NCBI GenBank assembly: GCA_002423385.1
Contig: DIVV01000135.1
Coordinates: 8,019 to 72,018 of the forward strand
DNA from: a bacterium UBP16_UBA6123
GTDB lineage: Bacteria; Muiribacteriota; UBA9980
Direction: 5' to 3'
Length of the DNA: 64,000 bases
Shown: one piece after another, positions 1-30,269 of the stretch
Numbering within the stretch: the first letter of the stretch is position 1
How the letters are laid out: each line of letters opens with the position of its first letter
The notes under the pieces: generated by a model
The model's input: only the letters and a program-made list of their open reading frames with translations
What the model was told of the DNA's origin: nothing
The model's database searches: none
Program-made: the position numbers and the translations under genes

Positions 1-740
1 CATGTATGCATCCGATTTCGCTTTCGACGATTCTCGGTCCTGGCGGCCTTTCAGGCAAAGGATTTTCTATCGACCATAATCTTAAGAAGCCCTGGGCGGA
101 CGCTAATGAAATCACTTTTCAGCTCCAGCGCGCCGATAACCCTTATTTATTTTCGGGAACGAATTCCGGGCATATTCCTTCCGCGTTGCTTCACGTTAAA
201 AATTACTACGATTTGAGCCGCGATAAATATTTCGAGCTGGGTTTAACCGCTATGATAGGGCCTAACAGTCGTTTTGGCGTAAACAATCCCGCCGGCGAGG
301 CTTTCGACGAAGCCAAACGCTATACTAAGCTCGCGGGGCTCGATCTAACTTATTTTTATGAGCCGGTCAATATGGCTAAATATAAAAACTTCCTCTGGCG
401 AACCGAGTTGTTTCATGTTAATAAAGAAATAACTAACGCCTTAAGCGGAAAGAATGAAAATATAAATACATTCGGCGGTTATACCTATATCCAGCGTAAA
501 ACTTCCGAGCAGTGGGAGCACGGCTTAAAATTCGATTATACGCATCCGTTTCAGGTCGATAATAAGCGCTTCAGAACTTATGCGATATCGCCCTACGTTA
601 ATTTCTGGCAGAGTCCATGGGTGAGAACGCGCTTTCAGTACGATTATATAAACAGTAATTTCGCGCCGCAAAAGGTCGAGCACCGCGCTAATCTTCAGCT
701 CACCTGGTCGTTCGGACCGCATAAGCACGAAAAATATTGA
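1..740 (+). CDS. Outer-membrane beta-barrel-like protein, C-terminal part (5' end lies outside window)
   Basis: Open frame runs from window edge to TAA at 738-740; repeated alternating aromatic/hydrophobic stretches (TYFYEPVN, GGYTYIQRK, YAISPYVNFWQS, RFQYDYINSNF, LQLTWSF) typical of amphipathic beta-strands; ends in aromatic residue. Confidence 0.35.
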   Translation, partial: CMHPISLSTILGPGGLSGKGFSIDHNLKKPWADANEITFQLQRADNPYLFSGTNSGHIPSALLHVKNYYDLSRDKYFELGLTAMIGPNSRFGVNNPAGEAFDEAKRYTKLAGLDLTYFYEPVNMAKYKNFLWRTELFHVNKEITNALSGKNENINTFGGYTYIQRKTSEQWEHGLKFDYTHPFQVDNKRFRTYAISPYVNFWQSPWVRTRFQYDYINSNFAPQKVEHRANLQLTWSFGPHKHEKY

Positions 741-840
741 TTTGCGGCCGAAAATTTCCATGAAAGGAAATTTAAGTTAACTCGAAGGCGTTTATACGCC
801 AGCAAAAAAATAATCGTATTGAAAAAGGAGAAAAGTATAT

Positions 841-1908
841 ATGAAAAAAATAATATTTTTAGCCGTGGCGATTTTTATAATTTCGCTTTCCGTCGTTATA
901 AATGTGTTTTCGGCCGTAGCCATAGCCGCGGCTGAAGTTAAAGATAAAATCAACGTGGTAACAACTCTTACCGATTACGCATATTTTGTCCGTGAAATAG
1001 GAAAGGAAAAAGTGGAGGTCGTAAATATATGTCAGGGCGATGAAAACGCTCACTTTGTAAGGCCCAAGCCGAGTTTTGTCAAATTGTGCCAGCGCGCCGA
1101 TCTTTTTATAGGCACTGGCCTGGATTTAGAATTATGGGTGCCCGGCCTTCTTGAAAAATCGGCCAATAAGAATATACAGAGCGGCCAGATCGGTTATGTA
1201 GCGGCCGCCGACGGCATCAAAATGCTTGAAATTCCTGAAGTATTAAGCCGTAGCGAAGGCGGGTTGCATGTTTACGGCAATCCGCATATCACGGTCGGGC
1301 CTTTGAACGCCTTTCAGATAGCCGATAATATACTGATAGGTTTAAGAAAAGTATCGCCGGAAAATACCGCTTATTTTGAAAAAAATCACGCGGATTTAAA
1401 AGACCGGTTGGTAAAAGCGCTCTATGGCGAGCAGCTTCCCGCGTTAGTAGGCGCCGAAGAGCTTATCGAAATGACACGCAATAATACGCTGATTAAATTT
1501 TTGAATGATAATAAATTAAAAGGCGAGCCGCTTATAGCTAAACTTGGCGGCTGGCTTAAAAAAGCGATGCCGCTGCGAGGCATTAAAATCATTAATTATC
1601 ACCGCAGTTGGATATATTTTAATTTCGTTTTCGGTATCGAGGCGGCTTCGGAAATCGAGCCGAAACCCGGAATTCCGCCTACGCCGAAGCATATTCTTGA
1701 AGTAATGGATATCATAAAAAAAGAAAATATTAAAATTATATTTTCCGAAAATTTTTATGATATAAAAAAAGTTATGCACGTGGCCGAAAAAACAGGCGCC
1801 AAACCCGTTATTATAGCAAATTATGTTGACGGCGAACCGGGCGTGGATACTTATTTTAAATTGATAGATTCATGGCTCGATAAAATGTTGTCCGCCCTTT
1901 CAAAATAA
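841..1908 (+). CDS. Metal (Zn/Mn) ABC transporter substrate-binding protein, ZnuA/TroA family
   Basis: N-terminal signal peptide; ~355 aa; conserved metal-site region HVYGNPHITVGP and overall TroA-like pattern; AGGAG RBS upstream. Confidence 0.7.
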   Translation: MKKIIFLAVAIFIISLSVVINVFSAVAIAAAEVKDKINVVTTLTDYAYFVREIGKEKVEVVNICQGDENAHFVRPKPSFVKLCQRADLFIGTGLDLELWVPGLLEKSANKNIQSGQIGYVAAADGIKMLEIPEVLSRSEGGLHVYGNPHITVGPLNAFQIADNILIGLRKVSPENTAYFEKNHADLKDRLVKALYGEQLPALVGAEELIEMTRNNTLIKFLNDNKLKGEPLIAKLGGWLKKAMPLRGIKIINYHRSWIYFNFVFGIEAASEIEPKPGIPPTPKHILEVMDIIKKENIKIIFSENFYDIKKVMHVAEKTGAKPVIIANYVDGEPGVDTYFKLIDSWLDKMLSALSK

Positions 1909-2035
1909 GCGCTCGAGTCAGTATTAAGCGGAGCGATAAACGTAAAATGCCGACGGCGGCAAATACTTGACTAAAAAATAAATTGTTATTTAAGTATTTT
2001 TTATAATCGCTTCGTTTAATAGGCGCTCGAGCTAA

Positions 2036-2947
2036 ATGAAATTTAAGATATGGAAAATAGAAAGTGATTGGTTATATATGAATGAAATAATAGCTTTGAT
2101 GCTCGCCCCTTTTTGTGAATGTCTGGTGCTTGTCGGCATACATTCATACCTCGGGCTCCACGTTATAAGGCGCGGAATAATATTTGTAGATCTGGCTTTC
2201 GCGCAGATAGCGGCGCTCGGATTGACCGTAGGTTTTCTTTTCGGAATCATGCCGGATTCTATCGGCGCCTACTGGATATCTCTTTCGTTCACTCTTATAG
2301 GCGCGTTTTTATTTTCGCTTTTCCGTTCGGTTGAATCGAAAATACCGCAGGAGGCCATAATAGGCTTAGTTTACGCCATAGCGGCAAGCGCGATGATAAT
2401 AGTCATCGACAGGGCGCCTCACGGCGCGGAACACATAAAAGAAGTTATGACCGGCGATCTTTTATTCGTTAAATGGGACTTCGTTATAAGCGCGGCCGTG
2501 GTATATTCTATAATTGGAATATTTCATTATATCTTCAGGGATAAATTCGTTACGCTTACCGAAAACCATTCTAAGGCGGGTCAATCTACGCTATGGGATT
2601 TTTTATTTTACGCTTCGTTCGGCGTTATCATAACTCATTCGGTCAGAACGGCGGGCGTATTGCTCGTATTCGTTTTTCTTGTCGCCCCCGCGATATTTAC
2701 AAAACTTTTCTGGACGGGCTGGCGCGATCAGCTTATAGCCGGATGGCTTACGGGAACCCTCGTTTCGGCCGGAGGCCTTTTCACTTCTTATTATCTTGAT
2801 ATGCCTTGCGGGCCTGCCGTAATTTTATTTTACGGCGCGGCGCTTCTTATGGCGGCGGCTTTTTACAGGTATAAATTTTTTATTCCGGTTAATTCGATAC
2901 TGGATCAAATACAGGGACCAACTATAAAATCAAAGGAGATTAATTAA
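2036..2947 (+). CDS. ABC-3 family metal transporter permease (ZnuB/TroC-like)
   Basis: Polytopic membrane protein ~300 aa immediately downstream of ZnuA-like gene; sequence pattern of ABC-3 permeases; alternative start at 2078 (MNEII). Confidence 0.65.
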   Translation: MKFKIWKIESDWLYMNEIIALMLAPFCECLVLVGIHSYLGLHVIRRGIIFVDLAFAQIAALGLTVGFLFGIMPDSIGAYWISLSFTLIGAFLFSLFRSVESKIPQEAIIGLVYAIAASAMIIVIDRAPHGAEHIKEVMTGDLLFVKWDFVISAAVVYSIIGIFHYIFRDKFVTLTENHSKAGQSTLWDFLFYASFGVIITHSVRTAGVLLVFVFLVAPAIFTKLFWTGWRDQLIAGWLTGTLVSAGGLFTSYYLDMPCGPAVILFYGAALLMAAAFYRYKFFIPVNSILDQIQGPTIKSKEIN

Positions 2948-2948
2948 A

Positions 2949-4139
2949 ATGAGCAAGTCAAAAGCATGCGGAAAGTACACAAAGGCTATTCACGCCGGAC
3001 AAACCATAGACCCTTTATACGGCGCGGTATCGGTGCCTATATACCAGACTTCGACCTTCGCTTTTTTATCGGCCGAAGACGGCGCCGCTAAATTCGCTGG
3101 CGAAGTTAAAGGTTATAAATATACCCGGCTGGGCAATCCTACGGTAAAGGCCCTCGAAGATTCGGTCGCCGAGCTCGAAAACGGCTATGGCGGCCTTGCC
3201 ACCTCATCCGGCATGTCGGCTATATCGACGGTTTATATGACTTTTTTATCGGCCGGCGCGCATATCGTTTCGACCGGTTCGGTTTATGGCCCTTCGCGCC
3301 TCGTCATCGAAAAGCAGTTTTCGCGTTTTAACGTCGAATATAGTTATATCGATACTTCCGATGCCGCTAATATCGAAAAAAGCATAAAACCGAATACTAA
3401 AATGCTTTATATCGAAACTCCGGCCAATCCGACTCTTTCTATAACCGATTTAAAGGCGTGCGCTAAGATCGCACAGAAGCACGGTATCGTTTTAGTCGTC
3501 GATAATACCTTTATGGGCCCATGCTTTCAAAGGCCGATAGAATACGGCGCCGACGTAGTGGTTCATTCGCTTACTAAATCGCTTAACGGTCATTCAGACG
3601 TCGTAGCGGGAATGATAGTCACTAAAAACGCCGAACTGTACAAGCAGATACAGGCCGTTCATTACCAGATGGGCGGAACTATAGACCCGAATCAGGCATG
3701 GCTCGTTTTACGCGGCATTAAAACCCTTCCGCTGCGAGTCGAAAAAAGCGCGCACAACGCCATGCAGCTCGCCGAATTTTTACAAAAACATCCGGCCGTT
3801 ACCAGCGTTACATATCCCGGGCTTAAAACCCACGCGCAGCATGAACTCGCATGCAGCCAGATGAGCGGTTTCGGTTCGATGATAACATTCGAAGTAAAAG
3901 GCGGCCTCAAAGCCGGAAAGACCGTTATGAACGGCGTTAAATTAGCCGCTCTCGCGGTTTCTCTCGGCGGCATCGAAAGCCTCATACAGCATCCGGCTTC
4001 GATGACTCACGCCGGCGTATCTAAAAAAGACCGTGAAGAAGCCGGAATTACGGACGGGCTTGTAAGATATTCGGTCGGCTGCGAAGATGTCGAAGATATA
4101 ATAGCGGACCTCGCGCAGGTGCTCGATAAAATAAAGTAA
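2949..4139 (+). CDS. Cys/Met-metabolism PLP-dependent enzyme (cystathionine gamma-synthase / methionine gamma-lyase / O-acetylhomoserine sulfhydrylase family)
   Basis: 396 aa; N-terminal YTRLGNPT and PLP-lysine region SLTKSLNGHSDVVAGM characteristic of the family; AGGAG RBS at 2930. Confidence 0.75.
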   Translation: MSKSKACGKYTKAIHAGQTIDPLYGAVSVPIYQTSTFAFLSAEDGAAKFAGEVKGYKYTRLGNPTVKALEDSVAELENGYGGLATSSGMSAISTVYMTFLSAGAHIVSTGSVYGPSRLVIEKQFSRFNVEYSYIDTSDAANIEKSIKPNTKMLYIETPANPTLSITDLKACAKIAQKHGIVLVVDNTFMGPCFQRPIEYGADVVVHSLTKSLNGHSDVVAGMIVTKNAELYKQIQAVHYQMGGTIDPNQAWLVLRGIKTLPLRVEKSAHNAMQLAEFLQKHPAVTSVTYPGLKTHAQHELACSQMSGFGSMITFEVKGGLKAGKTVMNGVKLAALAVSLGGIESLIQHPASMTHAGVSKKDREEAGITDGLVRYSVGCEDVEDIIADLAQVLDKIK

Positions 4140-4198
4140 AGTAAAGTAAAATGAAATAAAGTATAACAGTCAGTTAAAATATAATCAGGAGGTGTATT

Positions 4199-5179
4199 AT
4201 GGATGTTGAAGGCATTTTAGGGCGGGAGAAGGTAAACGATAACTTGATAGTATTCGGCCCGGTCCCTTCCAGGCGGCTCGGAAGAAGCCTCGGCGTGAAT
4301 AATATACCTCCTAAAATATGTTCATATTCGTGCGTTTATTGTCAGCTCGGGCGCACCGTTAAATTCATGTCGGCGCCTGAAAAGTTCTATGGTCCCGATC
4401 TAATTTATGCTCGGGTGAAAGAAAAAACCGATAAAATAATTAAACTCGATGAGAAACTCGATTATATCACTTTCGTGCCGGACGGCGAACCCACTTTAGA
4501 CGCGGACCTTTCGGATGAAATTGAAAAAATTAAAACGCTCGGTTTTAAAACGGCGGTAATTACTAACTCATCGTTAATTTGCGATGCGTCGGTAGCGAAA
4601 GCGCTTTCTAAAGCGGATCTTGTATGTTTTAAAGCCGACGCCGTTTATAAAGATATATGGATCAAAATAAACCGCCCGGCTAAAAATATCAAGCTGGAAG
4701 CTGTTTTAGAGGCAATAATCGAATTTTCGGCGTCTTATAAGGGCGTTTTGATTACCGATACGATGCTCGTAGAAGGCATTAACGACGGCGCTAAGCATTT
4801 AGAAGCCGTGGCGGATTATCTTGCCGGAGTAAAAGCCTCTAAAAATTATATTTCGGTCATTACCCGTCCCCCGGCTGAAATGCGCGTCAAAAAGCCCTGT
4901 GAAGAAAATCTTAACTGGGCTTATCAGCTTATAAACGCCGCGACGGGAAGAGCGGAGTATAATATTAATTTCGAAGGCGCTGATTTTTGTTATATGGGAG
5001 AGGCCGAAAAAGATTTTTTGAGCATAATTTCAGTGCATCCGATGCGCAGCGACGCGGTTAAAGAGTTTTTAGAGCGCGCCGGATTGGATTGGGCTTTTAT
5101 ACAGGAGCTTAAAACGCGCGGTAAAATAGTTGAAACGCTTTATGACGGAATGGATTTTTATACCAGAAAAATATCGTAA
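4199..5179 (+). CDS. Radical SAM protein
   Basis: CxxxCxxC motif CSYSCVYC preceded by GPVPSRRLGRSLGVN; 326 aa; GGAGG RBS. Confidence 0.7.
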   Translation: MDVEGILGREKVNDNLIVFGPVPSRRLGRSLGVNNIPPKICSYSCVYCQLGRTVKFMSAPEKFYGPDLIYARVKEKTDKIIKLDEKLDYITFVPDGEPTLDADLSDEIEKIKTLGFKTAVITNSSLICDASVAKALSKADLVCFKADAVYKDIWIKINRPAKNIKLEAVLEAIIEFSASYKGVLITDTMLVEGINDGAKHLEAVADYLAGVKASKNYISVITRPPAEMRVKKPCEENLNWAYQLINAATGRAEYNINFEGADFCYMGEAEKDFLSIISVHPMRSDAVKEFLERAGLDWAFIQELKTRGKIVETLYDGMDFYTRKIS

Positions 5180-5283
5180 ACACCCGTATAAATTTTTATA
5201 ATGTTATTTGTAACCGCTTAGTTATATAAATTTATTCAACAATTACAAAAAGCGGAGCGAATGAAATTAAAGTGGGGAAATAA

Positions 5284-6153
5284 ATGCGTACCTATTTAGA
5301 TTGTATTCCATGTTTTTTGCGCCAGGCGCTCGAAGCGTTGCGCGAAAACATTACCGATGAAGATAAAATGCTTTCAGCCATGAGAAAAGTATTAGTTTAT
5401 GCGTCAAAATTCGACGTGCGTAAAAGTCCGCCTGAAATGGGAATGCTTATTCATCGCATCGTTCGCGAAGAATCGGGCTGCTGCGATCCTTACGCCGAAA
5501 TAAAAAAGCGCTCGATAGCCGAATCGCTTAAGGTTATCGATAAGGTTCGCGATACTATTAATTCCTCCGATGATCCGTTAAAAACGGCCGCGCGGTTTTC
5601 CATCGCTGGCAATATCCTCGATTACGCGGTCGTTTCGATGCAGGCTGAATTCAGGCTTTTCGATTCGCTCAAAAAAGCCGTCGATAAGCCTTTGAACGAT
5701 GATATATTCGAATCGCTTCGCGCGCGGCTCGATAAAGCCTCATCTGTATTACTTATCGGCGATAACGCCGGCGAGACGGTATTTGACCGGCTTTTAATAG
5801 AACAGCTTCGCGCGCCGAAAATATATTATGGCGTAAAGGGCTCGCCGGTTATAAATGACGCTGTTTATTCAGACGCGATTGCCTCCGGCCTCGATGAAGT
5901 ATCCGAAATTATCGAAAACGGATCAGACGCGCCCGGAACCATACTGCGGCTTTGTTCCGCCGAATTTAAAAAGGTTTTTCGTAAGTGCGGCGTTGTAATA
6001 GCTAAAGGCCAGGCAAATTTTGAAACTCTCAATAACGCCTCGCGTGAAGTTTTTTTTATGTTGCAGATAAAATGTCCCGTTATAGCCCGAAATTATAACT
6101 ATAAAGTTGGCGATTGGGTCGTAACGACCGCGGAGAGCGGAAAACGAATATAA
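5284..6153 (+). CDS. DUF89 / ARMT1-like (damage-control phosphatase family) protein, tentative
   Basis: 289 aa; N-terminal CIPCFLRQ and internal GDNAGE resemble what I recall of short prokaryotic DUF89 proteins; not verified. Confidence 0.4.
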   Translation: MRTYLDCIPCFLRQALEALRENITDEDKMLSAMRKVLVYASKFDVRKSPPEMGMLIHRIVREESGCCDPYAEIKKRSIAESLKVIDKVRDTINSSDDPLKTAARFSIAGNILDYAVVSMQAEFRLFDSLKKAVDKPLNDDIFESLRARLDKASSVLLIGDNAGETVFDRLLIEQLRAPKIYYGVKGSPVINDAVYSDAIASGLDEVSEIIENGSDAPGTILRLCSAEFKKVFRKCGVVIAKGQANFETLNNASREVFFMLQIKCPVIARNYNYKVGDWVVTTAESGKRI

Positions 6154-6167
6154 AAGAGGAGAAGTAA

Positions 6168-6893
6168 ATGATTATTAAAAAAATTATCGAAAAATTGTCG
6201 CATTTTGGAAACGTAAAAATTATAAGATTGGTTATAGGCCTCGGTTATACGGTAGCGCATACCGAAACAGGCCTTGGGCTTTCATATACCATGATCTCGC
6301 GCAAGGATTCCTGCACGGTAAATCCGACTGCCGGCTCTTTTGCGGGTAGAACGATAAAGGAAGCGCTTGAAATTATCAATCGCGACCCGGATAATATTAA
6401 CAACAGGACTATATTGATAGCTTTATTCAATTCGACCGTAGATTTTGATAAAATAACCAATTCGGGCGGCGACGCGGTCGGTATAATGGATATTAAACCT
6501 GGCGACGAAGTGTTTATGATAGGCTATTTTGAACCGCTCATCGCATCGATTAAGAGCCGCTGCAAGCATTTAACTATAATAGAAGAAAGGCATGGACTGA
6601 CTACCGGCGAATTTAAAGAAGAAGACTGGAAGTCTGAGGTAAATATCATCACTTCGACTTCGCTCATAAATTCTTCGTTCGAAGATATCGCGCGCAAGTG
6701 TAAAAAATCTCGAATTAATTGTCTGATGGGGCCTTCGACTATTCTGGAACCCGAATTTTTTAAAGAATATAATATGAGCTATCTTGCAGGCCTGAAGCCG
6801 CTTAACTATGATAGGATTATTGAAATAGTGTCTGAAGGCGGCGGAACGAAATTATTTAATAAATATTGTGAAAAAATAGTAGTTAAATGTTAA
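6168..6893 (+). CDS. DUF4213/DUF364 (Rossmann-like, putative metal-chelation) protein
   Basis: 241 aa; C-terminal half matches DUF364 pattern (VFMIGYF...ITSTSLIN...CLMGPST); paralog of next gene. Confidence 0.5.
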   Translation: MIIKKIIEKLSHFGNVKIIRLVIGLGYTVAHTETGLGLSYTMISRKDSCTVNPTAGSFAGRTIKEALEIINRDPDNINNRTILIALFNSTVDFDKITNSGGDAVGIMDIKPGDEVFMIGYFEPLIASIKSRCKHLTIIEERHGLTTGEFKEEDWKSEVNIITSTSLINSSFEDIARKCKKSRINCLMGPSTILEPEFFKEYNMSYLAGLKPLNYDRIIEIVSEGGGTKLFNKYCEKIVVKC

Positions 6894-6916
6894 AATAAGA
6901 TTATCAGGGAGGCTTT

Positions 6917-7783
6917 ATGCAAAATGCCGAAAAAATTGGCAAAAAAATGAAAACAGTCCAGCCGGAAGGGCAGTACGGGGTTATGAACAACGATAAAATG
7001 GATAAGTTTTTAAATGAACTGCGCGGCGAGGCGGCGAAAAAAGCGGGTGAAACTTTTCTTACGAATGCATGCGTGGGAGTTTATATGACCTGCGTTGAAA
7101 ACTCGGCTGGCAAGATGGGAGTAAGCTATACCTGGCGCGATGAAAATTTAGTGCCGCATCTATGCAGGGGAATAAATGACGCGGGAAGCCTTCATGGTAA
7201 AAAAATGAGCGATATAATAGAACTTATAAATTCGCCGTCGTCTTTAGAGCGTTCTTTAGCTATGGCGGGGGTTAATTCGCTGCTTAATATCTCCATGGAG
7301 CTCGAAGCGCAGCAAGGCGACATGCTTTTATATCTGCGCGATAAATATAAAGGTGAAAAAGTGGCTATGATAGGCCATTTTCCCTTCGCGGACGAAATGA
7401 AAAAATGGGCTGGCGAATTTCATGTAATAGAAAAAAATCCCGTAGGCGACGATCTTACATTCGATCGCGGCCGTAAATTTTTAAACGAGGCGGCCGCCGT
7501 AGTAATAACCGGGACAACTATATTAAATAAAAGTTTTATAGAGGTTATAAGCGAATGTAAAAATTCGTTCAACGTGATGCTCGGCCCTACCGTTCCGCCT
7601 TCGGAACTGCTTTTTGATTACGGTGTAAGCGCCATAGTGGCTATTCGCTCGCTCGATAACGCCCGGCTTTATTCTTCGATAGCCGAAGGCGCCATTGTGC
7701 CTCGTTTTAAGGGCAGCGAAATGGTGACCTACTGCCGGGAAAAATTAAATTTGCCGCAGGGCGATTTCAGAAATAGAATTTAA
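6917..7783 (+). CDS. DUF4213/DUF364 protein, second tandem paralog
   Basis: 288 aa; VAMIGHFPF...VVITGTTILNKSF...MLGPTVP matches DUF364 pattern; clear similarity to 6168-6893. Confidence 0.5.
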   Translation: MQNAEKIGKKMKTVQPEGQYGVMNNDKMDKFLNELRGEAAKKAGETFLTNACVGVYMTCVENSAGKMGVSYTWRDENLVPHLCRGINDAGSLHGKKMSDIIELINSPSSLERSLAMAGVNSLLNISMELEAQQGDMLLYLRDKYKGEKVAMIGHFPFADEMKKWAGEFHVIEKNPVGDDLTFDRGRKFLNEAAAVVITGTTILNKSFIEVISECKNSFNVMLGPTVPPSELLFDYGVSAIVAIRSLDNARLYSSIAEGAIVPRFKGSEMVTYCREKLNLPQGDFRNRI

Positions 7784-7815
7784 AGATGACGATATTGTAA
7801 AAAGTGAGGAATTAA

Positions 7816-8529
7816 ATGTTTATAGAAACGCTTTTCGATAAAACCGCGGTTGATGAAAAACTGCATACCGGCTGGGGGCTTTCATTTTTGATTGATAACC
7901 GTTTCATCTTCGATACGGGAGAAAAAGGGCCCTGGCTTATGGAAAATATGGATAAGCTGAAAGTTCCGATGGAAAACATCGAGGCTATAATAATTTCTCA
8001 CGATCACTGGGACCATTGGGGCGGCCTCTGGGATTTATTAAAAAATGGCAGGTGCCGTAGGGTTTATATATGCCCCCGCTTCGGCGATAAATTCAAAAAA
8101 AAGGCTAAAAAGCATAACGCCGAATTAATCGAATCGCCGGATTTTATCGAAATTTATAAAAATATTTATATCACCGGCCAGATCGACGGCTTATATGACG
8201 GAACTTATATAGCTGAACAGGCCCTGGCTATAAGGACGCAAAACGGTATAAGCATAATAACCGGCTGCGCTCATCCGGGCATAGTTAAAATTATCGAAAA
8301 AGTAAAAAGTAAATTCATGGGTGAAAGTATTTATACGCTGATAGGCGGTTTTCATTTAATGCACGAGGATGAAACGGCAATAAAAGCCGTGGTAAATAAA
8401 TTCAGAGAAATCGGCGTTAAAAAAGTATATTCCACCCATTGCAGCGGGGATAAAGCGGCGTCAATTTTTTTGAAAAATTACTCTCAGGATTGCGGTGAAG
8501 TAATCGTAGGGCGAAGCATTGAAATATAA
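7816..8529 (+). CDS. MBL-fold metallo-hydrolase
   Basis: HxHxDH-type motif ISHDHWDHWGG, GWGLSFLID N-terminus, later His/Asp ligands; 237 aa. Confidence 0.6.
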   Translation: MFIETLFDKTAVDEKLHTGWGLSFLIDNRFIFDTGEKGPWLMENMDKLKVPMENIEAIIISHDHWDHWGGLWDLLKNGRCRRVYICPRFGDKFKKKAKKHNAELIESPDFIEIYKNIYITGQIDGLYDGTYIAEQALAIRTQNGISIITGCAHPGIVKIIEKVKSKFMGESIYTLIGGFHLMHEDETAIKAVVNKFREIGVKKVYSTHCSGDKAASIFLKNYSQDCGEVIVGRSIEI

Positions 8530-8614
8530 AACGATGTTTAACCTGGATTTAAAACTTTATAGTTTTTTGAAACCGTAAATATTTATCGGCGTAGGGCCTT
8601 AAGGGAGTTTTATT

Positions 8615-9277
8615 ATGCTGAAACAGATTTTAGACGAGCTGCGCGCTCATGCGCCTTATACTTTTTTTGGAGTGATAACGGGCATTATAATAATGCTTTT
8701 ATGCCATCGGCTACCTTTCGAATTATCTTATCGTATTTTTTATGTAATTCATCCGCTGCATGTTTTTTTAAGCGCCTTAGTCACCGCGGCGATGTATGAA
8801 CTTCACGAATGCCCGAAAGTTAATTCTAAATGCGTCAAGGGCCGCTGTAATTTATGGAAATTACTTATCATCGGTTATCTCGGTTCAATAGGAATAGCCA
8901 CTATAAGCGATTCCATTATACCGTATTTTTTTGAAATTTTATTGAATATGCCTAATAAGGGCATCCATCTCGGTTTTATTGAAAAATGGTGGCTCGTGAA
9001 TCCCCTTGCGGTTCTTGGCATTATTTTTGCTCATTATAAACCGGCTACTAAATTTCCGCACGCGGGCCATGTACTTTTGAGCACCTGGGCGTCGCTGTTT
9101 CATATTTTAATGGCTTCAACCGGCAATTTAGATTGGATTTCGTATTTGGTAATTATGTTCTGTCTGTTTATTGCGGTCTGGCTTCCGTGCTGCGTGAGCG
9201 ATATAGCTTTTCCTTTGTTATTCGTTAAAAAGAAAGAAGCGGCCGGCGATGAGGGAGCTAACGGCGATAATTTATAA
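8615..9277 (+). CDS. Hypothetical polytopic membrane protein
   Basis: Several hydrophobic segments; GGGAG RBS; no family recognised. Confidence 0.35.
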   Translation: MLKQILDELRAHAPYTFFGVITGIIIMLLCHRLPFELSYRIFYVIHPLHVFLSALVTAAMYELHECPKVNSKCVKGRCNLWKLLIIGYLGSIGIATISDSIIPYFFEILLNMPNKGIHLGFIEKWWLVNPLAVLGIIFAHYKPATKFPHAGHVLLSTWASLFHILMASTGNLDWISYLVIMFCLFIAVWLPCCVSDIAFPLLFVKKKEAAGDEGANGDNL

Positions 9278-9347
9278 AAGATATGCGGCGGCATAATTAA
9301 AATGTTGTTAAATAGTAAAATAAGTTAAAAAATAAAAGGAGAATATT

Positions 9348-10694
9348 ATGAAAAAATTTGATACCGTAGTTATAGGCGGGGGTCCGGCGGGTATTACTGC
9401 CGCTATTTCGGCCAGACGCAATTATCCTCAAAAAAGCGTAGCCTTGATACGCAGGGAAGAACAGGTTATGATTCCCTGCGGCATTCCTTATATATTCGGC
9501 ACTCTTAAAACACCGGAGCAAAATTTGGCGCCCGATGCCGGGTTGAAAAATAATGCGATAGAACTAATAATAACCGGCGTCGACAAAATCGATGCAGAGA
9601 AAAAGTCTATTCAGACTCCCGGCGGCGAAATATCATGGGATAAACTAGTAATTGCTACCGGCTCGAGACCTTTCGTACCGCCGATACCGGGTAAAAATCT
9701 TAAAGGCGTATTTGATATAAAAAAGGATTCTAATTATCTTAAAGAACTTAAAAAACATATAGCGGAAGCTAAAAATATCGTGATCGTAGGCGGCGGTTTT
9801 ATAGGCGTGGAATTCGCTGATGAAATTGTTAAAACGGCCGGGAAAAGCGTTTCTATAATAGAAATGATGCCGAATTGCCTTGCTTTGTCTTACGACGCTG
9901 AATTTTGCATTGAAGCTGAAAAAAAATTGCGCGCGGCGGGCGTTAATGTATATACATCTACGCGCGTCGAATCTTTCGGAGGCGTCGAAAAGATTGAATT
10001 CGTTAAAATTTCTTCGGGCGAAAGCGTTCCGGCGGATCTTGTTATATTGGGGATAGGCGCTCATGCCGAAGTGGAACTGGCGCGCGCCGCGGGAATTGCA
10101 ATAGGGTCCAGCGGCGGCATAATCGTTGACCGTCGAATGGAAACCAGCGTTAAAAATATTTTTTCCTGCGGCGATTGCACTGAAAAATATTCATTTTTCG
10201 GCGGGCGGCTTTCACAGCTTAAATTAGCTTCCATAGCCACTCAGGAAGCCAGGATCGCGGGCGCCAATCTTTTTGAAACAAGGCTTCAGGGCGCCGGAAC
10301 GCTCGGAGTGTGGTCAACGATGATATCTTCAATGGCCTTTGCCACGGCGGGTCTTACGGAATCGGCGGCCGTGTCGATGGGATATCGCGTTATTACGACC
10401 AGCGTTGAAGGAATTAATCGCCATCCGGGCGTAATGCCGGGCGGCCATAACACTAAATTGAAGTTGGTCTTCGAGGCTTCGTCGTCGATTCTGCTTGGCG
10501 GCCAGGCTTGCGGAGGTGAGTCGGTCGGTGATATGGTCAACGTAGTGGCGGCATTAATACAAAAAAATATGAGAGCGGACGAAATCACTTTATTTCAAAT
10601 GGGAACGCATCCGGCGCTTTCGGCGTCTCCGATCGCTTATCATTTAGTCAACGCGGCTGAAATGGCCTGTCAGAAGTTTTTAAGTAAAGGTTAA
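9348..10694 (+). CDS. FAD-dependent pyridine nucleotide-disulfide oxidoreductase (NADH oxidase / CoA-disulfide reductase family)
   Basis: N-terminal GGGPAG FAD fold, single redox Cys in MIPCGIPYIFG (Nox/CoADR position), second GGGFIG NAD(P) fold, 448 aa. Confidence 0.7.
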   Translation: MKKFDTVVIGGGPAGITAAISARRNYPQKSVALIRREEQVMIPCGIPYIFGTLKTPEQNLAPDAGLKNNAIELIITGVDKIDAEKKSIQTPGGEISWDKLVIATGSRPFVPPIPGKNLKGVFDIKKDSNYLKELKKHIAEAKNIVIVGGGFIGVEFADEIVKTAGKSVSIIEMMPNCLALSYDAEFCIEAEKKLRAAGVNVYTSTRVESFGGVEKIEFVKISSGESVPADLVILGIGAHAEVELARAAGIAIGSSGGIIVDRRMETSVKNIFSCGDCTEKYSFFGGRLSQLKLASIATQEARIAGANLFETRLQGAGTLGVWSTMISSMAFATAGLTESAAVSMGYRVITTSVEGINRHPGVMPGGHNTKLKLVFEASSSILLGGQACGGESVGDMVNVVAALIQKNMRADEITLFQMGTHPALSASPIAYHLVNAAEMACQKFLSKG

Positions 10695-10826
10695 TAAATA
10701 GAAGTTTTTTGAGAGGATTAAAAATGGAGCTAAATTAAATATGAACTAAAAAGAGGGCTAAAGATAGAGTCGGAAAAAAATAAAAAAAGAGAACAAAAGA
10801 GAGGATCATAGAAAGGATTAAGCGTT

Positions 10827-11165
10827 ATGAGGAATTTAAAAGTTAATAATTTCTTTATGCTTATATTTTCATTTGCAGTATTGCTTAATTTATATTTTTA
10901 CTCGGCCGGTTTTTCTGGACCGGATTGCGATAACTGCCCGTTAAAAAGTTTATGCGACGAAACGGTTCTTGACTGCGGCCTGCCGCTTTGTGAGGATGAA
11001 GCGTTTAGAAAGTATTTCGACGCAAATACCGGAAAAGCTAAAGATAACGCATTGGAGCTTATCCGCGCCGAACTGAATTTAAGTACCGCCGAAGCGAATC
11101 TTGGCGCCGTTACAAACGAAGTTACCGTTGAAACAATTTTAAAAAAAGACGCGGTTATAAATTAA
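10827..11165 (+). CDS. Small Cys-rich secreted protein, hypothetical
   Basis: Signal-peptide-like N-terminus then CDNCPLKSLCDETVLDCGLPLC (6 Cys in 25 aa); purine-rich leader upstream. Confidence 0.35.
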   Translation: MRNLKVNNFFMLIFSFAVLLNLYFYSAGFSGPDCDNCPLKSLCDETVLDCGLPLCEDEAFRKYFDANTGKAKDNALELIRAELNLSTAEANLGAVTNEVTVETILKKDAVIN

Positions 11166-11188
11166 AAAGAAGGGATGGCATTTTTACT

Positions 11189-11596
11189 GTGAGTGTTGCA
11201 ATAGATAACGATAACGATAATAATAATTTTGACGCCATCGAATACGGCGATACAAATTTTGATTTAATGAAATTCTTCGGACAGATGAATGATCCGAGCT
11301 GCAGCTCATATATTAAAGGGCCGTGCGGCGATTTTATGGAATTTTATTTAATTTTTGATAAAAGCGGTAAAATTTCTGAAATCAACTATTATACCGAAGG
11401 CTGTGAGGCCACTAAAACGTGCGCTTCGGTGGCCTGCCATCTGGCATTGTATAAGAGCGTCGATGAAGCGCTTATGATTTCGGCGGGTATGATAGCCCGA
11501 AAAATAAAAGGGCTTCCCGACGATCATAAGCATTGCGCGATATTATCGGTCACATCTCTTTATCGGGCGCTCGCCGATTATCTGCTTATGCCCTGA
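11189..11596 (+). CDS. IscU/NifU N-terminal-domain-like Fe-S scaffold protein with Asp/Asn-rich N-terminal extension
   Basis: Three scaffold Cys motifs GPCGD, GCEAT, KHCAIL align to IscU ACGD / GCGS / HCS positions; listed start is GTG at 11189; alternative ATG at 11267. Confidence 0.55.
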   Translation: MSVAIDNDNDNNNFDAIEYGDTNFDLMKFFGQMNDPSCSSYIKGPCGDFMEFYLIFDKSGKISEINYYTEGCEATKTCASVACHLALYKSVDEALMISAGMIARKIKGLPDDHKHCAILSVTSLYRALADYLLMP

Positions 11597-11655
11597 CGGC
11601 GGCTGGATGTATTAAAAAAAGTGGCTCTTATTCATTTCATGTGGGTAAGTTTATC

Positions 11656-11794
11656 AGTGAATAGTGTAGAGTGGATAGTGAATAGTTGAGGCTGGGGCTC
11701 GCCCTGCGAGCTTTATATATAAAATATTTAAATACGCCTTATCGAAATTTCCAAAAGTCCTTTAGTTCTCAACTCTCCACTCTGAACTCTTAAC
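11656..11794. repeat. Imperfect long inverted repeat (arms ~35 nt) flanking a GC-rich core inside a 460-bp intergenic region
   Basis: Left arm cagtgaatagtgtagagtggatagtgaatagttgagg (11656-11692) is near-complementary to right arm ttagttctcaactctccactctgaactcttaac (11762-11794); left arm also contains internal direct repeats AGTG(A/G)ATAGTG. Confidence 0.35.
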
Positions 11795-12057
11795 TTAATT
11801 TAAATATTTTACCCATACGATATGAAAAAGAACCAAAAAAGTATAATGATGGCATGATTAATGCGATATGATCTATAAAGTGTTTAATTATAATGAATCT
11901 ACTCTACAAAGTTGAAAAAAGGCAAAAATATTCATTAAAACTATTTAAAATAGATTATCAAAATTCAAAAAAACGACTTTTTAGAATTAATTCATTTATA
12001 AACACGAAAAAAATTCATAGCTTGCTATAAAAAAAATTCATATTCGAGGAGTTTACT

Positions 12058-12537
12058 ATGAAAAAACGGATCATGCCTTATTTAATCGGAGTATTTGCTG
12101 GTGCGGCCTTAATGTTAATATTAACCGCTTTTTTAATGCCTAAAATTATGATTTTAGAAGACGTTTCACCTCTTGGTTACGATGAAGCGCTTAAAGTTAT
12201 AAAAGATAAAACGGCGGAGCTGAAGTGGAAGATACCTGTAGTTCATGAATTGCATAAGAGCATGGAAAAAGAAGGTTATACGGTTGAAAAAGCCGCCGTG
12301 GTCGAAATTTGCAAGGCCGATTACGCCGCTGAAATTTTACAGACCGATAACGCTCGTAACGTAACATCGTTAATGCCGTGCAGGATAGCTTTATACAGGA
12401 CATCCGACGGAAAAACGATAATTTCGAGAATGAATACAGGCCTTATGAGCAAACTTTTCGGCGGAAAGGTTACGGAAGTCATGGCTAAAGCCACTTTCGA
12501 CAGCGAGCAGATAATATCTGCGCTGCTAAAGCCTTAA
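12058..12537 (+). CDS. DUF302 domain protein
   Basis: 159 aa, N-terminal TM/signal, core with MPCRIALY motif typical of DUF302; GAGGAG RBS. Confidence 0.55.
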   Translation: MKKRIMPYLIGVFAGAALMLILTAFLMPKIMILEDVSPLGYDEALKVIKDKTAELKWKIPVVHELHKSMEKEGYTVEKAAVVEICKADYAAEILQTDNARNVTSLMPCRIALYRTSDGKTIISRMNTGLMSKLFGGKVTEVMAKATFDSEQIISALLKP

Positions 12538-12623
12538 ATTGTAAAAGCCTGTTTTGCGAAGCGGCGATAACATGTCATAAGGTTGAATGTAATCCGCTTT
12601 ATTAAATAATAAATCGAGGATAT

Positions 12624-13412
12624 ATGAAAATAACGGATGATCTCGGCAGAACGTTTTATTTTAAAAGGCAGCCGCGGCGCATAATTTCTTTGTGCCCTTC
12701 GGTAAGCGAAACTTTATTCGATTTGGGCCTTGAAGATTATCTGATCGGCAGGACCGATTATTGCGTTCATCCGCAAAATAAAATAGAGTCGATACAGAGC
12801 GTCGGCGGGCCTAAAAGCGTTTCAATACAGCTCCTTGAATCTTTGTGCCCGGATATAATCCTGGCGGTCAAAGAAGAAAATGATAAAAAAACTCTTGAAA
12901 GCCTCGCCGCGCTTTATTACAAATGTTTTATATTCGACGTAAATACTTTTTCAGATGCGCTTAATATGATCGAAAAAATCGGAACCATATTCGGCCGCGA
13001 AGCGCGGGCACTGGCTATGGCAGAAGATATTAAAAAAGGTTTCGAGGACGCCGGGCAAATTTCTAAAAAACTCAATTTTATTTATATGACCTGGAGTTCG
13101 CCTTATATCGCCGCGGGCACCGGCAATTATATAAATTCGCTGATTGCCGGCCTCGGTTTTAATAACTGCCTTTCAAATCACATTAACCGATATGTAAGGC
13201 TTTCTTTAAGCGATCTTAAGAAATTATCGCCGGATATAGTATTTCTTCCCTCCGAGCCTTATAATTATACGGTTTATGATAAATTAAAATTCGAAAAAAT
13301 ATTCCCGTCGGCCCGCGCTGTTTTAGTTGACGGCGAAATGTTCTGCTGGTACGGCTCGCGTATGATAAAGGCGGCGCCGTATATTAAAAATTTATTTAAA
13401 GAAATAATGTGA
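12624..13412 (+). CDS. Periplasmic binding protein, BtuF/Fe-siderophore (TroA-like class III) family
   Basis: RRIISLCPSVSETLFDLGL N-terminus typical of cobalamin/iron-siderophore SBPs (PF01497-like); 262 aa. Confidence 0.55.
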   Translation: MKITDDLGRTFYFKRQPRRIISLCPSVSETLFDLGLEDYLIGRTDYCVHPQNKIESIQSVGGPKSVSIQLLESLCPDIILAVKEENDKKTLESLAALYYKCFIFDVNTFSDALNMIEKIGTIFGREARALAMAEDIKKGFEDAGQISKKLNFIYMTWSSPYIAAGTGNYINSLIAGLGFNNCLSNHINRYVRLSLSDLKKLSPDIVFLPSEPYNYTVYDKLKFEKIFPSARAVLVDGEMFCWYGSRMIKAAPYIKNLFKEIM

Positions 13413-13444
13413 AATAAGATTAAGAAAAAAATAAGAAAAAAATA

Positions 13445-13473
13445 TTGACATTAAAAATTTAATATGTTAAAAT
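13445..13473 (+). promoter_or_regulatory. Sigma-70-type promoter (TTGACA-17-TAAAAT with extended TGn) upstream of peroxiredoxin gene
   Basis: TTGACA at 13445-13450, 17-nt spacer, TGtTAAAAT at 13465-13473; lies in AT-rich spacer 150 nt upstream of start codon. Confidence 0.4.
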
Positions 13474-13625
13474 AAATAATAATAAGAATTATTACTAATT
13501 AATTAAAAGCTAATATATCGGTTTTGATGTTTATATAAATGAATAATTTAAAATAAGTTAAATTATAGTATTGTATTCCAGGCCGCGTCGTTACTGCGGT
13601 AATTTATAATAGAAGGAGAAAAAAT

Positions 13626-14351
13626 ATGTCTAATGAAACAATGAAACCCGTAGTAGAATCCATGCCCCGTATAGGCGATAAAGCGCCTTCATTCAAAGCC
13701 GTAACCACACAGGGTGATATTAATTTTCCCGATCAATATCAGGGCAGTTGGGTAATATTATTCAGTCATCCCGCCGATTTTACCCCCGTATGCACTTCTG
13801 AATTCATGACTTTTGCGAGCCTCGAACCTCAGTTCAATGAAATCAACTGCAAGCTCGTAGGTCTTTCCATAGACGGCCTTTACAGTCATATCGCGTGGCT
13901 GCGTTCATTAAAGGAAAAAATCGAATATAAGGGCATGAAAAATATAGAAGTAAAATTCCCTCTCATCGAAGATATAACCATGGAAGTAGCTAAAAAATAC
14001 GGCATGATCCAGCCTGGCGAAAGCATGACCAAAGCCGTCCGCGCGGTATTTGTAATCGATCCGAAAGGCTTCATCCGCACGGTAATTTACTATCCAGCCA
14101 GCCTCGGCAGAAATTTCGATGAAATATACAGAGTAGTAGTGGCGCTTCAAACCGCCGACGCTTTTAAAGTTGCAACTCCCGCAGACTGGCGCCCGGGCGA
14201 CGACGTAATAGTTCCGCCGGCAGGCTCCTGCGGCGTGGCTAAAGACCGCATGGAAGGCAAAGAAGATATCAAATGTTACGACTGGTATTTCTGCACTAAA
14301 AAACTCGATAAAGAAACGATTATGAAAGAAATTAAAAAAACGGCGAAGTAA
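13626..14351 (+). CDS. Peroxiredoxin (Prx6/1-Cys-type, thioredoxin fold)
   Basis: Peroxidatic Cys motif FTPVCTSE, DKAPSFKAVTTQGDINF N-terminus, 241 aa; GAAGGAG RBS. Confidence 0.8.
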   Translation: MSNETMKPVVESMPRIGDKAPSFKAVTTQGDINFPDQYQGSWVILFSHPADFTPVCTSEFMTFASLEPQFNEINCKLVGLSIDGLYSHIAWLRSLKEKIEYKGMKNIEVKFPLIEDITMEVAKKYGMIQPGESMTKAVRAVFVIDPKGFIRTVIYYPASLGRNFDEIYRVVVALQTADAFKVATPADWRPGDDVIVPPAGSCGVAKDRMEGKEDIKCYDWYFCTKKLDKETIMKEIKKTAK

Positions 14352-14371
14352 AACCGCAAAAAAAATAAAAA

Positions 14372-14407
14372 AGCCGGCCGAATATTTTTCAGGCCGGCTT
14401 TTTTATT
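14372..14407. terminator. Rho-independent terminator between convergent genes
   Basis: agccggcc (14372-14379) / ggccggct (14392-14399) 8-bp GC stem, 12-nt loop, followed by TTTTTATT; A-run on the other side allows bidirectional function. Confidence 0.6.
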
Positions 14408-14439
14408 ACGGAAATCTATTCCTTTTAAAATAAATTGGT

Positions 14440-30265: not shown

Positions 30266-30269
30266 AATC

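Follow-up and report, generated by a model that had tools for sequence, protein, structure and literature searches.

What connects a run of co-directional genes in which a metal-type binding protein and permease stand beside a sulfur-amino-acid lyase, a radical S-adenosylmethionine (SAM) enzyme and two DUF364 proteins? We addressed this question in 64,000 nucleotides of the bacterium UBP16_UBA6123 (GTDB lineage Bacteria; Muiribacteriota; UBA9980), positions 8,019 to 72,018 of the forward strand of contig DIVV01000135.1 (assembly GCA_002423385.1); this whole stretch is referred to here as the window. A preliminary description, made from the letters alone, had treated eight plus-strand genes at 841-8529 as a stand-alone array. 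Our comparison with related loci indicates that an extended gene cluster of the orange protein (ORP) type, in a Wallbacteria-like anaerobe, has this array as its downstream half; this known cluster had been missed earlier. We propose, with a probability of roughly 0.45, that this ORP-associated system combines cation import, sulfide mobilisation and enzymes acting on SAM or adenosyl ligands to assemble or deliver a molybdenum- or tungsten-sulfur (Mo/W-sulfur) centre.

All eight co-directional genes were recovered in the ORF table at exactly the coordinates given earlier, and each of the Pfam families predicted for them scored above its gathering cut-off, the threshold against which Pfam calls are judged here (NCBIfam calls are judged against equivalog cut-offs). 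The array does not end at 8529, as had been thought. It extends on the same strand from a porin-like outer-membrane protein (OMP) gene, cut by the window start, to 13412. In the following list the functional names are predictions, and core and accessory refer to the comparison of related loci described below.

6 to 740, plus strand: porin-like OMP, predicted, C-terminal 244 aa of about 500 aa; cut by the window start and first gene of the transport module
841 to 1908, plus strand: ZnuA/TroA-type (cluster A-I) metal-cation binding protein with signal peptide (PF01297, 135 bits, cut-off 29)
2036 to 2947, plus strand: ABC-3 family permease (PF00950, 80.7 bits, cut-off 20.1)
2949 to 4139, plus strand: methionine-gamma-lyase-like pyridoxal-phosphate (PLP) enzyme, accessory (PF01053 Cys_Met_Meta_PP, 510 bits, cut-off 27)
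4199 to 5179, plus strand: radical SAM protein of an uncharacterised subfamily, COG0731-type N-terminus, core (PF04055, 45 bits, cut-off 29.5)
5284 to 6153, plus strand: DUF89/ARMT1-like metal-dependent phosphatase fold, accessory (PF01937, 207 bits, cut-off 25)
6168 to 6893, plus strand: DUF4213+DUF364 protein, type A, motif VSEGGGTK, core (PF04016, 102.5 bits; PF13938, 39.3 bits)
6917 to 7783, plus strand: DUF4213+DUF364 protein, type B, motif IAEGAIVPRFKG...LPxGDF, accessory (PF04016, 94.5 bits; PF13938, 54.7 bits)
7816 to 8529, plus strand: metallo-beta-lactamase (MBL)-fold protein, accessory (PF00753 Lactamase_B, 33.9 bits, cut-off 22.7)
8615 to 9277, plus strand: 220-aa His-rich polytopic membrane protein of no family (no Pfam match even at E<=5)
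9348 to 10694, plus strand: flavoprotein resembling coenzyme A-disulfide reductase (CoADR) and NADH oxidase (Pyr_redox_2, Pyr_redox_dim)
10827 to 11165, plus strand: small secreted protein with six Cys, no family; kept in Wallbacteria-like loci only
11189 to 11596, plus strand: NifU_N/IscU-like scaffold, core (PF01592, 57.8 bits)
12058 to 12537, plus strand: DUF302 protein with an N-terminal hydrophobic segment, accessory (PF03625, 38 bits)
12624 to 13412, plus strand: cytoplasmic TroA/BtuF-like 'helical backbone metal receptor' without signal peptide, core (PF01497, 88 bits)

The intergenic spacers measure 100, 127, 1, 59, 104, 14, 23 and 32 nt, a range of 1-127 nt rather than the 15-130 nt first reported. 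Seven of the eight genes are preceded by a GGAG-type Shine-Dalgarno motif, and the supposedly unbroken series of such sites fails at the ABC-3 permease, which has none before 2036; its start may be 2078, giving a protein of 289 aa, as in the relative L007. A scan of positions 1-15500 for sigma-70 promoter and terminator consensus elements gave no excess over shuffled sequence, and because these matches lie at background the limits of the operon are not defined. None of the eight proteins falls within a curated NCBIfam equivalog, and for the radical SAM protein and the DUF364 pair there is no specific model.

To which organisms does the arrangement belong, and how much of it is constant? An identical copy of the radical SAM sequence is present on a JGI contig of sample 3300002498 (TOLCLC). 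The closest named genomes are Candidatus Wallbacteria metagenome-assembled genomes (MAGs) and 'bacterium ADurb.Bin243'. In a presence matrix of ten Wallbacteria-like loci with genes labelled by phmmer, the array is syntenic, with the radical SAM protein 83% identical in L007 and 65% identical in L003 (bacterium ADurb.Bin243). The invariant core consists of a small Cys/His membrane protein, the OMP, the ZnuA-like protein, the ABC-3 permease, the radical SAM protein, DUF364 type A (present in every complete syntenic locus), the NifU-like protein and the cytoplasmic TroA-like receptor, the latter two likewise in all complete loci. This bears out the earlier suspicion that the IscU-like gene at 11189 is tied to the set. 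The treatment of the eight genes as one set holds in that they are conserved together, but four of them are accessory: the lyase gene is missing from L009/L018, DUF89 from L013, DUF364 type B from L012, L009/L018 and L017, and the MBL gene from L003, L004, L009 and L018. The 220-aa membrane protein, the flavoprotein and DUF302 also vary between loci. Two natural gene-loss variants can be delimited. In L012 (10001-10786; DUF364 type A 97% identical) there is no type B gene, just a 63-nt gap before the MBL gene, and in Wallbacteria GWC2_49_35 (L013, 8967-9977) the DUF89 gene is gone.

What lies upstream of the array places it in the ORP cluster. In four relatives (L007, L003, L012 and L013), ORP-type genes sit directly upstream on the same strand. 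The upstream string in relatives comprises a Nitro_FeMo-Co gene, two CbiA/MinD ATPases with ferredoxin inserts, a pyruvoyl-type decarboxylase, a ParA/Mrp ATPase, DUF5320 and TrmO_N; the Nitro_FeMo-Co protein, a NifX-like orange protein, corresponds to Orp8 of Desulfovibrio vulgaris, the two ferredoxin-ATPases Orp3 and Orp4, and Mrp Orp9. We found the ORP hallmark, an Orp8-type gene with two MinD/CbiA ATPases bearing two [4Fe-4S] ferredoxin motifs, in L007, L003, L012, L013, L009 and L092. The Mrp/ParA gene lies upstream in L007 and L003 and is fused to NifU in L009, and no protein tested reached the MrpORP equivalog cut-off of 450 bits. The TrmO-like protein of the relatives scores 120.8 bits against TIGR00104 (cut-off 93.25) and consists of the TrmO_N domain only, at 159 aa. 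Orp8-type proteins carry a [S2MoS2CuS2MoS2] cluster, and orp operons are under sigma-54 control (PMC6345978, PMC4641369).

The cluster of D. vulgaris Hildenborough consists of orp3/4/5/7/8/9 and the sigma-54 activator DVU2106. Its likeness to the Wallbacteria-like loci lies in the co-directional Orp8-like, Orp3/4-like and Orp9-like genes with DUF5320 upstream in relatives, in the presence within the window of a PAS-domain sigma-54 activator of the associated type, and in the restriction of the cluster to anaerobes. As described in PMC6345978 and PMC4641369, the published cluster has no metal ABC importer, gamma-lyase, radical SAM, DUF89, DUF364, MBL or TroA-like genes, whereas the Mrp protein of the relatives lacks the fused NifX-like domain (L007), the activator of the window is 18 kb from the array, no convincing sigma-54 promoter is found in the array and the ORP genes fall beyond the window. 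The ORP cluster as such is already known. What is new is the importer, the radical SAM subfamily, DUF89, the DUF364 paralogs, the MBL-fold protein, the TroA-like receptor and a bridge, described below, to YqeB/YqeC/MocA and xanthine dehydrogenase (XDH) operons. We did not find this extension described, and the exact combination of the eight genes, which had been called unfamiliar at the outset, was likewise absent from the literature searched.

Do these families keep company outside the Wallbacteria-like group? The most instructive case is L092, a MAG of an unrelated lineage with a type-B DUF364 protein 43% identical to that of the window. One strand of this locus carries, in order, DUF134, DUF5320, a Zn-ribbon protein, NifU, a NifX-like protein, Orp3-like and Orp4-like proteins, a Cys/Met lyase (518 bits), a second NifX-like protein, DUF364, DUF364 type B (209 bits) and Mrp, followed by DUF4405, DUF89, a small protein, the OMP (215 bits), ZnuA (375 bits), an ABC ATPase, a fused ABC-3 permease, a third DUF364 and an MBL-fold protein. 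Array families are thus interleaved with ORP genes, an ATPase is present, and the string contains no radical SAM gene. In L010, ORP genes are followed by a B/A pair of DUF364 genes, as type A and type B are also paired in L092. An Acidobacteriota locus (L061) reads DUF364, small protein, OMP, ZnuA and ABC-3 with no ATPase. In deltaproteobacterial loci such as L019, TrmO and DUF364 come directly after ORP genes; the full L019 string is Mrp, YqeB, two NifX-like proteins, Orp3, Orp4, TrmO, DUF364, NifU, NifS, MBL, DUF134 and a second YqeB. In L019, the gene directly after DUF364 encodes a protein whose N-terminus is flavodoxin-like.

A scan for DUF364 type A with one genome per species returned 80 loci, 73 of them outside the Wallbacteria-like group. 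These 73 species are mostly Thermodesulfobacteriota/Deltaproteobacteria and Acidobacteriota, with a few NC10/Methylomirabilis, Vulcanimicrobiota, Thermotogae, Actinomycetota and SAR324. Counting neighbours within 10 kb of DUF364 by bit-score thresholds, we observed NifU/Mrp in 32 of the 73 species, a PAS sigma-54 activator in 21, ORP-like genes in 21, MBL in 20, NifS in 17, a TrmO-like gene in 17 (often immediately upstream), molybdenum-cofactor or XDH genes in 15 and the same radical SAM subfamily in 14; relatives of the flavoprotein were found in 8. Because the region counted is about 20 kb of a several-Mb genome, and between one third and one half of the species nevertheless have such rare genes next to DUF364, this co-location is far beyond chance, as judged on that proportion and not on a formal genome-wide background. 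When the neighbours were clustered without supervision, these families emerged again, joined by DUF169, CGGC and a hotdog thioesterase. The Acidobacteriota loci (L046, L022, L056 and others) also show another conserved set made up of DUF169, NifS, NifU, hotdog thioesterase, DUF364, sigma-54 activator, MBL and TrmO, often with a TonB-dependent receptor. The neighbourhood check proposed at the outset is thus borne out: synteny across the ten related loci and the joint recurrence of these families in other phyla show that the arrangement is not a chance one. The array genes form part of a conserved supercluster that has ORP genes and DUF364 at its centre and strong ties to Fe-S and sulfur mobilisation, molybdenum-cofactor and XDH genes.

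The last of these ties, the strongest DUF364 links beyond the array, had not been noticed before. A full operon of a MocA-like gene, DUF364, MoCF_biosynth, a third DUF364 type, YqeB and YqeC occurs in L021, L028, L034 and L080; it is partial at contig ends in L040, L054 and L074, and rearranged in L071. Both Yqe proteins exceed their thresholds (YqeB 359 bits, NCBIfam cut-off 220; YqeC 169 bits, cut-off 73). YqeB and YqeC are comparative-genomic markers of selenium-dependent molybdenum hydroxylases (Haft & Self 2008, PMC2276186). The window resembles that maturation set (YqeB, YqeC, MocA/YgfJ; PMC2276186) in that DUF364 homologues are embedded in MocA-...-YqeB-YqeC operons and that an XdhA-like hydroxylase is encoded in the window, and differs from it in that the window has no yqeB, yqeC, mocA or selD. 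Two published observations on DUF364 point in a similar direction: in Methanococcus maripaludis a DUF364 gene lies inside the modABC operon and is cofit with nifH, and a 2010 structure paper noted that STRING connects the family with transporters of Mo, W, V and Fe. The DUF364 literature that we found contained nothing on selenium- or Mo-hydroxylase maturation or on ORP, and in a thiomolybdate study of M. maripaludis we found no specifically relevant genes.

The hydroxylase of the window and its divergent neighbour are as follows.

27391 to 31133, minus strand: three-subunit XdhA-like molybdenum hydroxylase operon, candidate client of the system (MoCoBD_1/2 with Ald_Xan_dh_C; Fer2/Fer2_2; FAD_binding_5 with CO_deh_flav_C)
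31804 to 33159, plus strand: PAS-domain sigma-54 activator, divergent from the XDH operon (Sigma54_activat, PAS, HTH_8)

In the second Wallbacteria lineage (L009/L018), the orthologous XDH operon starts 140 nt after DUF364, and DUF364 is likewise accompanied by XDH-family genes in L011, L025, L046 and L090. Against the activators found beside DUF364 in Acidobacteriota, that of the window scores 448 bits. With XdhA models the hydroxylase scores 643-660 bits, below cut-off.

How might the parts work together? In the scheme we propose, the small Cys/His membrane protein, the OMP, the three-His ZnuA-type protein and the ABC-3 permease would import a thiophilic divalent cation, using an ATPase encoded elsewhere. 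The gamma-lyase resembling methionine gamma-lyase (MGL), or NifS in other lineages, would supply sulfide and possibly selenide. NifU, Mrp and the ORP ATPases may then build Fe-S or heterometal-sulfide clusters and pass them to NifX-like carriers and the cytoplasmic TroA-like receptor. The radical SAM protein, the TrmO-like SAM protein and DUF364 A/B would act on the cofactor or an organic ligand by SAM- or nucleotide-dependent chemistry, with DUF89 and the MBL-fold protein as putative accessory hydrolases. The most likely product or client would be a Mo/W-sulfur centre, for instance the thiomolybdate-type cluster that the orange protein carries, or the cofactor of XdhA-type hydroxylases in its sulfurated or selenated form, or both. 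The preliminary idea of metal uptake combined with sulfur mobilisation and cofactor building fits the partners now seen (NifU, NifS or gamma-lyase, Mrp, NifX-like carriers). There is a likeness, by functional analogy only, to the Nif assembly line (NifS, NifU, NifB, NifX, NifH), which likewise has a sulfur donor, a NifU scaffold, a radical SAM enzyme, NifX-like carriers and NifH/MinD-class ATPases; NifB is also among the fold matches of the predicted radical SAM structure. Unlike that system, the array shows no homology to NifB, NifEN or NifDK above the generic level (TM about 0.45), and there is no nitrogenase in the window.

In the importer module, the OMP fragment matches no Pfam family, and a permissive search (E<=5) gave sub-threshold hints to beta-barrel porin families only. 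Outer-membrane barrels typically end in an aromatic residue, and the last residue of this protein is aromatic. Full-length homologues of 500-502 aa are encoded in L001/L007, and homologues precede ZnuA/ABC-3 in the Wallbacteria-like loci, in L061 (85 bits) and in L092. The ZnuA-like protein is far below the cut-off of every NCBIfam equivalog; it aligns with YcdH, YfeA and MntC and has His at three alignable metal-ligand positions. Measured against importers of the ZnuABC/TroABCD type, the binding protein and permease are present and the ATPase is in neither the array nor the window: no metal-type ABC ATPase is encoded in the 64 kb, where the sole ABC_tran match is an Opp-type gene at 58891-59952. 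The missing ZnuC-type gene had been noted correctly. As a feature of the system it stands for this lineage but not in general, since the cognate ATPase is missing from L003, L007, L009 and L061 and present in L092; the absence is lineage-specific. Compared with the cluster A-I importers ZnuABC, TroABCD and MntABC, the module is alike in its PF01297 protein with His at three alignable ligand positions and its PF00950 permease, and unlike in having no ATPase gene in this lineage or L061, in being preceded by a dedicated porin-like OMP and a small Cys/His membrane protein, and in its low equivalog scores.

That small membrane protein always precedes the OMP gene (L007, 4655-4951; L003, 4963-5265; L061, 3163-3537; L092, 13056-13508), and in this organism its gene would lie just beyond the window. 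It has a motif HxH...C...CxxC and a C-terminal N-[KR]-[AS]-P-P in three of four lineages, with R-G-P-P in L092. It belongs to no Pfam family, the L092 copy giving a sub-threshold DUF2946 hint (E 0.3).

Among the enzymes, the lyase scores below the cut-off of both MGL models (TIGR01328, 472 bits vs 549.7; NF004876, 486 bits vs 666), and its closest solved relatives are MGLs at about 430 bits. It retains the equivalents of the Tyr, the PLP-binding Lys and the Arg, and the hallmark Cys (Cys115/116) is replaced by Pro. We read it conservatively as a candidate gamma- or beta-eliminating producer of sulfide or a thiol; its homologue in L092 lies within the ORP operon.

The radical SAM protein begins, as had been noted, with GPVPSRRLGRSLGVN...CSYSCVYC, a sequence invariant across 30 homologues. 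It has a single CX3CX2C motif at residues 41-48 and no obvious auxiliary cluster, and it gave no NCBIfam match and no sequence match in the PDB. An AlphaFold2 model (pLDDT 80) compared by Foldseek with the PDB matched pyruvate formate-lyase activating enzyme, viperin, NifB, TYW1, MoaA and LipA at TM 0.42-0.55. These are generic radical SAM cores only, and the substrate is for that reason not inferable. Identity as MoaA or as a tungsten-cofactor radical SAM maturase was ruled out (22-31 bits vs cut-offs of 325-380). In the predicted structure, the roughly 58 C-terminal residues (269-326) form three helices and a beta-hairpin in a winged-helix-like unit, which would contain an invariant VHPMR motif. 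The same subfamily adjoins DUF364 in Thermotogae, Vulcanimicrobiota and Proteobacteria loci. A 53%-identical radical SAM protein of another lineage (L005/L006, 10001-13940) is not beside DUF364 and has DUF134 and Nitro_FeMo-Co genes within 3 kb, which hints that the subfamily itself may track ORP-type genes.

The DUF89 protein, also found in L092 and L042, scores 161 bits with the damage-control phosphatase model NF040824 (cut-off 440) though it is well above the PF01937 cut-off; solved relatives are 2ffj and 2g8l. The two DUF364 proteins are 22% identical to each other. In a 13-sequence alignment of both types, G119, E139, T162/T164 and N88 are invariant and align with Gly129, Glu148, Thr174 and Asn83 of the adenosyl site of Dhaf4260; one Cys is invariant as well. 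The MBL-fold protein is related to 7dck (7dck_A, E 9.5e-39), TM1679 and 2p4z.

Of the genes downstream of 8529, the 220-aa membrane protein scores 347 bits to a 214-aa protein encoded between NifU::ParA and DUF89 in L009; neither it nor the six-Cys secreted protein matched any family in the permissive Pfam search (E<=5). The flavoprotein reaches 230-235 bits with CoADR models, below cut-off, and has a single Cys in VMIPCGIPY. Mercuric reductase was ruled out on account of this single-Cys redox motif and of the best models, which are CoADR and NADH oxidase. The NifU_N scaffold is below the cut-off of the equivalog models. The TroA-like receptor (N-terminus MKITDDLGRTF...) passes NF038402 at 114.6 bits (cut-off 30), and its gene is beside DUF364 in L009.

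Several observations weigh against a Mo/W-sulfur product. Because the window starts inside the OMP gene, the presence of ORP genes in this organism is deduced from relatives that are 83-97% identical, and the role given to ORP in the literature is 'putatively cell division' (PMC6345978, PMC4641369). The ZnuA-like protein looks like a receptor for a divalent cation, not for molybdate or tungstate. Neither the array nor the 64-kb window encodes the Mo-specific genes modABC, moa/moe, mocA, yqeB/C or xdhC; the XDH operon of the window is 19 kb from the array; and an Rfam scan of the window and four related loci found no molybdenum-cofactor riboswitch or other element. Counts of the sigma-54 -24/-12 pattern are at or below shuffle expectation in both the window and L007. 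About half of the DUF364 neighbourhoods have neither ORP nor Mo genes, and the sole characterised DUF364 protein, a SAM-derivative cyclase, speaks for small-molecule chemistry. What each step does chemically is only a proposal, as guilt by association cannot assign chemistry.

The main rival to a Mo/W-sulfur centre takes up this small-molecule precedent. Here the radical SAM protein would modify SAM or an adenosyl substrate, DUF364 A/B would perform SAM-lyase, cyclase or aminocarboxypropyl-type chemistry, and the PLP enzyme and the pyruvoyl decarboxylase that relatives encode upstream would tailor a nicotianamine- or azetidine-like chelator, either an intracellular ligand that buffers or passes on the imported metal or a secreted metallophore. 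The precedent is Orf5, a DUF364 protein of a Streptomyces peptide pathway that converts 4''-methyl-SAM to a methyl-azetidine-carboxylate and methylthioadenosine, is paired with a radical SAM enzyme and is the only member of the family characterised biochemically; its catalytic residues are Tyr61 and Glu204, and DUF364 and radical SAM genes co-occur in an EFI-GNT analysis (PMC12930334). In line with this, radical SAM and DUF364 genes are adjacent in several phyla, adenosyl-site residues are kept in both of our DUF364 types, PvlArgDC-like genes occur in the same strings, and DUF364 stands beside importers of differing specificity (ZnuA/ABC-3 in L061, TonB/FecCD in L011, Mod in the literature). 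The array thus shares with the Orf5/BnvC pair of the bonnevillamide pathway (PMC12930334) a DUF364 gene beside a radical SAM gene and conserved adenosyl-binding residues. It differs in that our radical SAM protein has no B12-binding domain and so is not of the class that partners Orf5, BnvC being a B12-dependent radical SAM C-methyltransferase, and in having two divergent DUF364 paralogs and metal-trafficking neighbours in place of a nonribosomal peptide synthetase (NRPS) context. A domain search of the array (16 genes) found neither a nicotianamine synthase (NAS)/CntL-type synthase nor an opine dehydrogenase, an NRPS, a dedicated exporter or a chelate-binding receptor of the NikA/Opp type. 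The ZnuA-like protein is of the three-His, free-cation type rather than a chelate receptor, and the secreted metallophore entertained in the preliminary description finds no support. The L092 string has no radical SAM gene, and a chelator would leave the embedding in ORP, NifU, NifS and YqeB/YqeC operons unexplained. We consider a SAM-derived chelator unlikely.

A second alternative confines the system to Fe-S supply: Fe2+ or Zn2+ would enter through ZnuA/ABC-3, sulfide would come from the lyase, and Orp3/Orp4 and the radical SAM protein would receive [4Fe-4S] clusters built by NifU and Mrp, with no Mo/W or pterin role and the remaining genes as passengers. MrpORP does transfer Fe-S clusters to Orp3/Orp4 in vitro (PMC6345978, PMC4641369), NifU-like genes are core and NifS is frequent, and the nearest solved binding proteins are YfeA, MntC and YcdH. 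Yet the supposed passengers (DUF364, TrmO, MBL and radical SAM) are the most consistently linked genes across phyla, DUF364 also occurs in MocA/YqeB/YqeC operons that have no ORP or NifU genes, and the orange protein carries a Mo-Cu-S rather than an Fe-S cluster. We regard Fe-S supply as the whole function as distinctly improbable.

The genes could also handle selenium, with the lyase freeing selenide or methylselenol from seleno-amino acids, and NifU, the CoADR-like reductase and DUF364 passing selenium to the labile selenium-molybdenum cofactor of the XdhA-like enzyme. YqeB and YqeC flank DUF364 in at least 8 species. The window encodes the elongation factor SelB (51007-52956, minus strand, adjoined by DsbD_2 and TctA-family genes), so the organism uses selenium and inserts selenocysteine, and the XDH large subunit scores 627 bits with the Se_sel_red_Mo model. 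This score is nonetheless below cut-off, as it is for every selenium-related model; phmmer and Pfam searches of the window found no selD, yqeB, yqeC or SirA/YedF-type gene; and L009, which has the adjacent XDH operon, has no lyase. A dedicated selenium pathway is in our view very unlikely.

Finally, the genes may be a chance juxtaposition of zinc uptake, methionine catabolism, tRNA modification (TrmO, TYW1-like radical SAM) and oxidative stress, as could be argued from the TrmO-like protein passing its TIGR00104 cut-off, the JGI label 'wyosine synthetase' for the radical SAM protein and the helix-helix-helix-hairpin unit predicted at its C-terminus, the dispensability of several members and operon boundaries not demonstrable from promoter and terminator scans, but this scarcely credible reading is already disfavoured by the co-occurrence data, with the same families together in different orders in Wallbacteria, L092, Thermodesulfobacteriota, Acidobacteriota, NC10 and others, by the TrmO-like protein having its N-terminal domain only and by the fact that wyosine is not known to be made by bacteria.

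What would assembly of a Mo/W-sulfur centre by these genes mean beyond this organism? Work on the orange protein complex goes back to about 2000. For the labile selenium-molybdenum cofactor, no markers other than YqeB and YqeC are known, and it was not until 2026 that a biochemical activity was first assigned to a DUF364 protein, in the unrelated context of secondary metabolism. That ORP, DUF364 and YqeB/YqeC share neighbourhoods across several phyla turns three separate questions into one hypothesis, with the radical SAM subfamily, TrmO-like proteins, NifU/NifS, an MBL-fold protein and the porin/ZnuA/ABC-3 importer as common partners. The broadest form of the idea, which we hold to be rather doubtful, is that ORP, DUF364, the COG0731-type radical SAM protein, the TrmO-like protein, NifU/NifS and MBL, joined by YqeB/YqeC in some lineages, form one hitherto unrecognised, anaerobe-wide assembly line that would build or deliver a sulfur- or selenium-bearing Mo/W centre. 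Candidates for that centre are the thiomolybdate-type cluster of the orange protein as a Mo donor, or a sulfurated or selenated XDH-family cofactor. Such an assembly line would unite the orange protein, DUF364 and YqeB/YqeC in a single function, and a Mo/W-sulfur link would bear on molybdenum handling by anaerobes in sulfidic settings, where thiomolybdates prevail over molybdate.

Some further features of the window touch on these subjects or lie apart from them. A -24/-12-like element, AGGCATACTTTTTGCT, at 31265-31280 on the minus strand, lies 132-147 nt upstream of the start of the FAD-subunit gene of the XDH operon; the pattern is not enriched in the window. Within the gene of the 220-aa membrane protein, TGGCATTATTTTTGCT at 9016-9031 (plus strand) has one mismatch to the sigma-54 consensus and lies about 320 nt upstream of the flavoprotein gene. 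An identical copy is present in L007 (14782-14797), and the match may be due to chance. Beside the XDH locus are a purine/cytosine permease gene (25643-27160) and, nearby, a flavodoxin-ferredoxin fusion (33833-34882, plus strand) and a DUF362 protein with a ferredoxin domain (38093-39238, minus strand). A B12-binding radical SAM protein with DUF4080 is encoded outside the cluster at 48731-50923 on the minus strand. At the window edge, a shell protein with tandem bacterial microcompartment domains stands beside an RnfC/Nuo51-like Fe-S flavoprotein (60005-62025, minus strand), which suggests a bacterial microcompartment locus.

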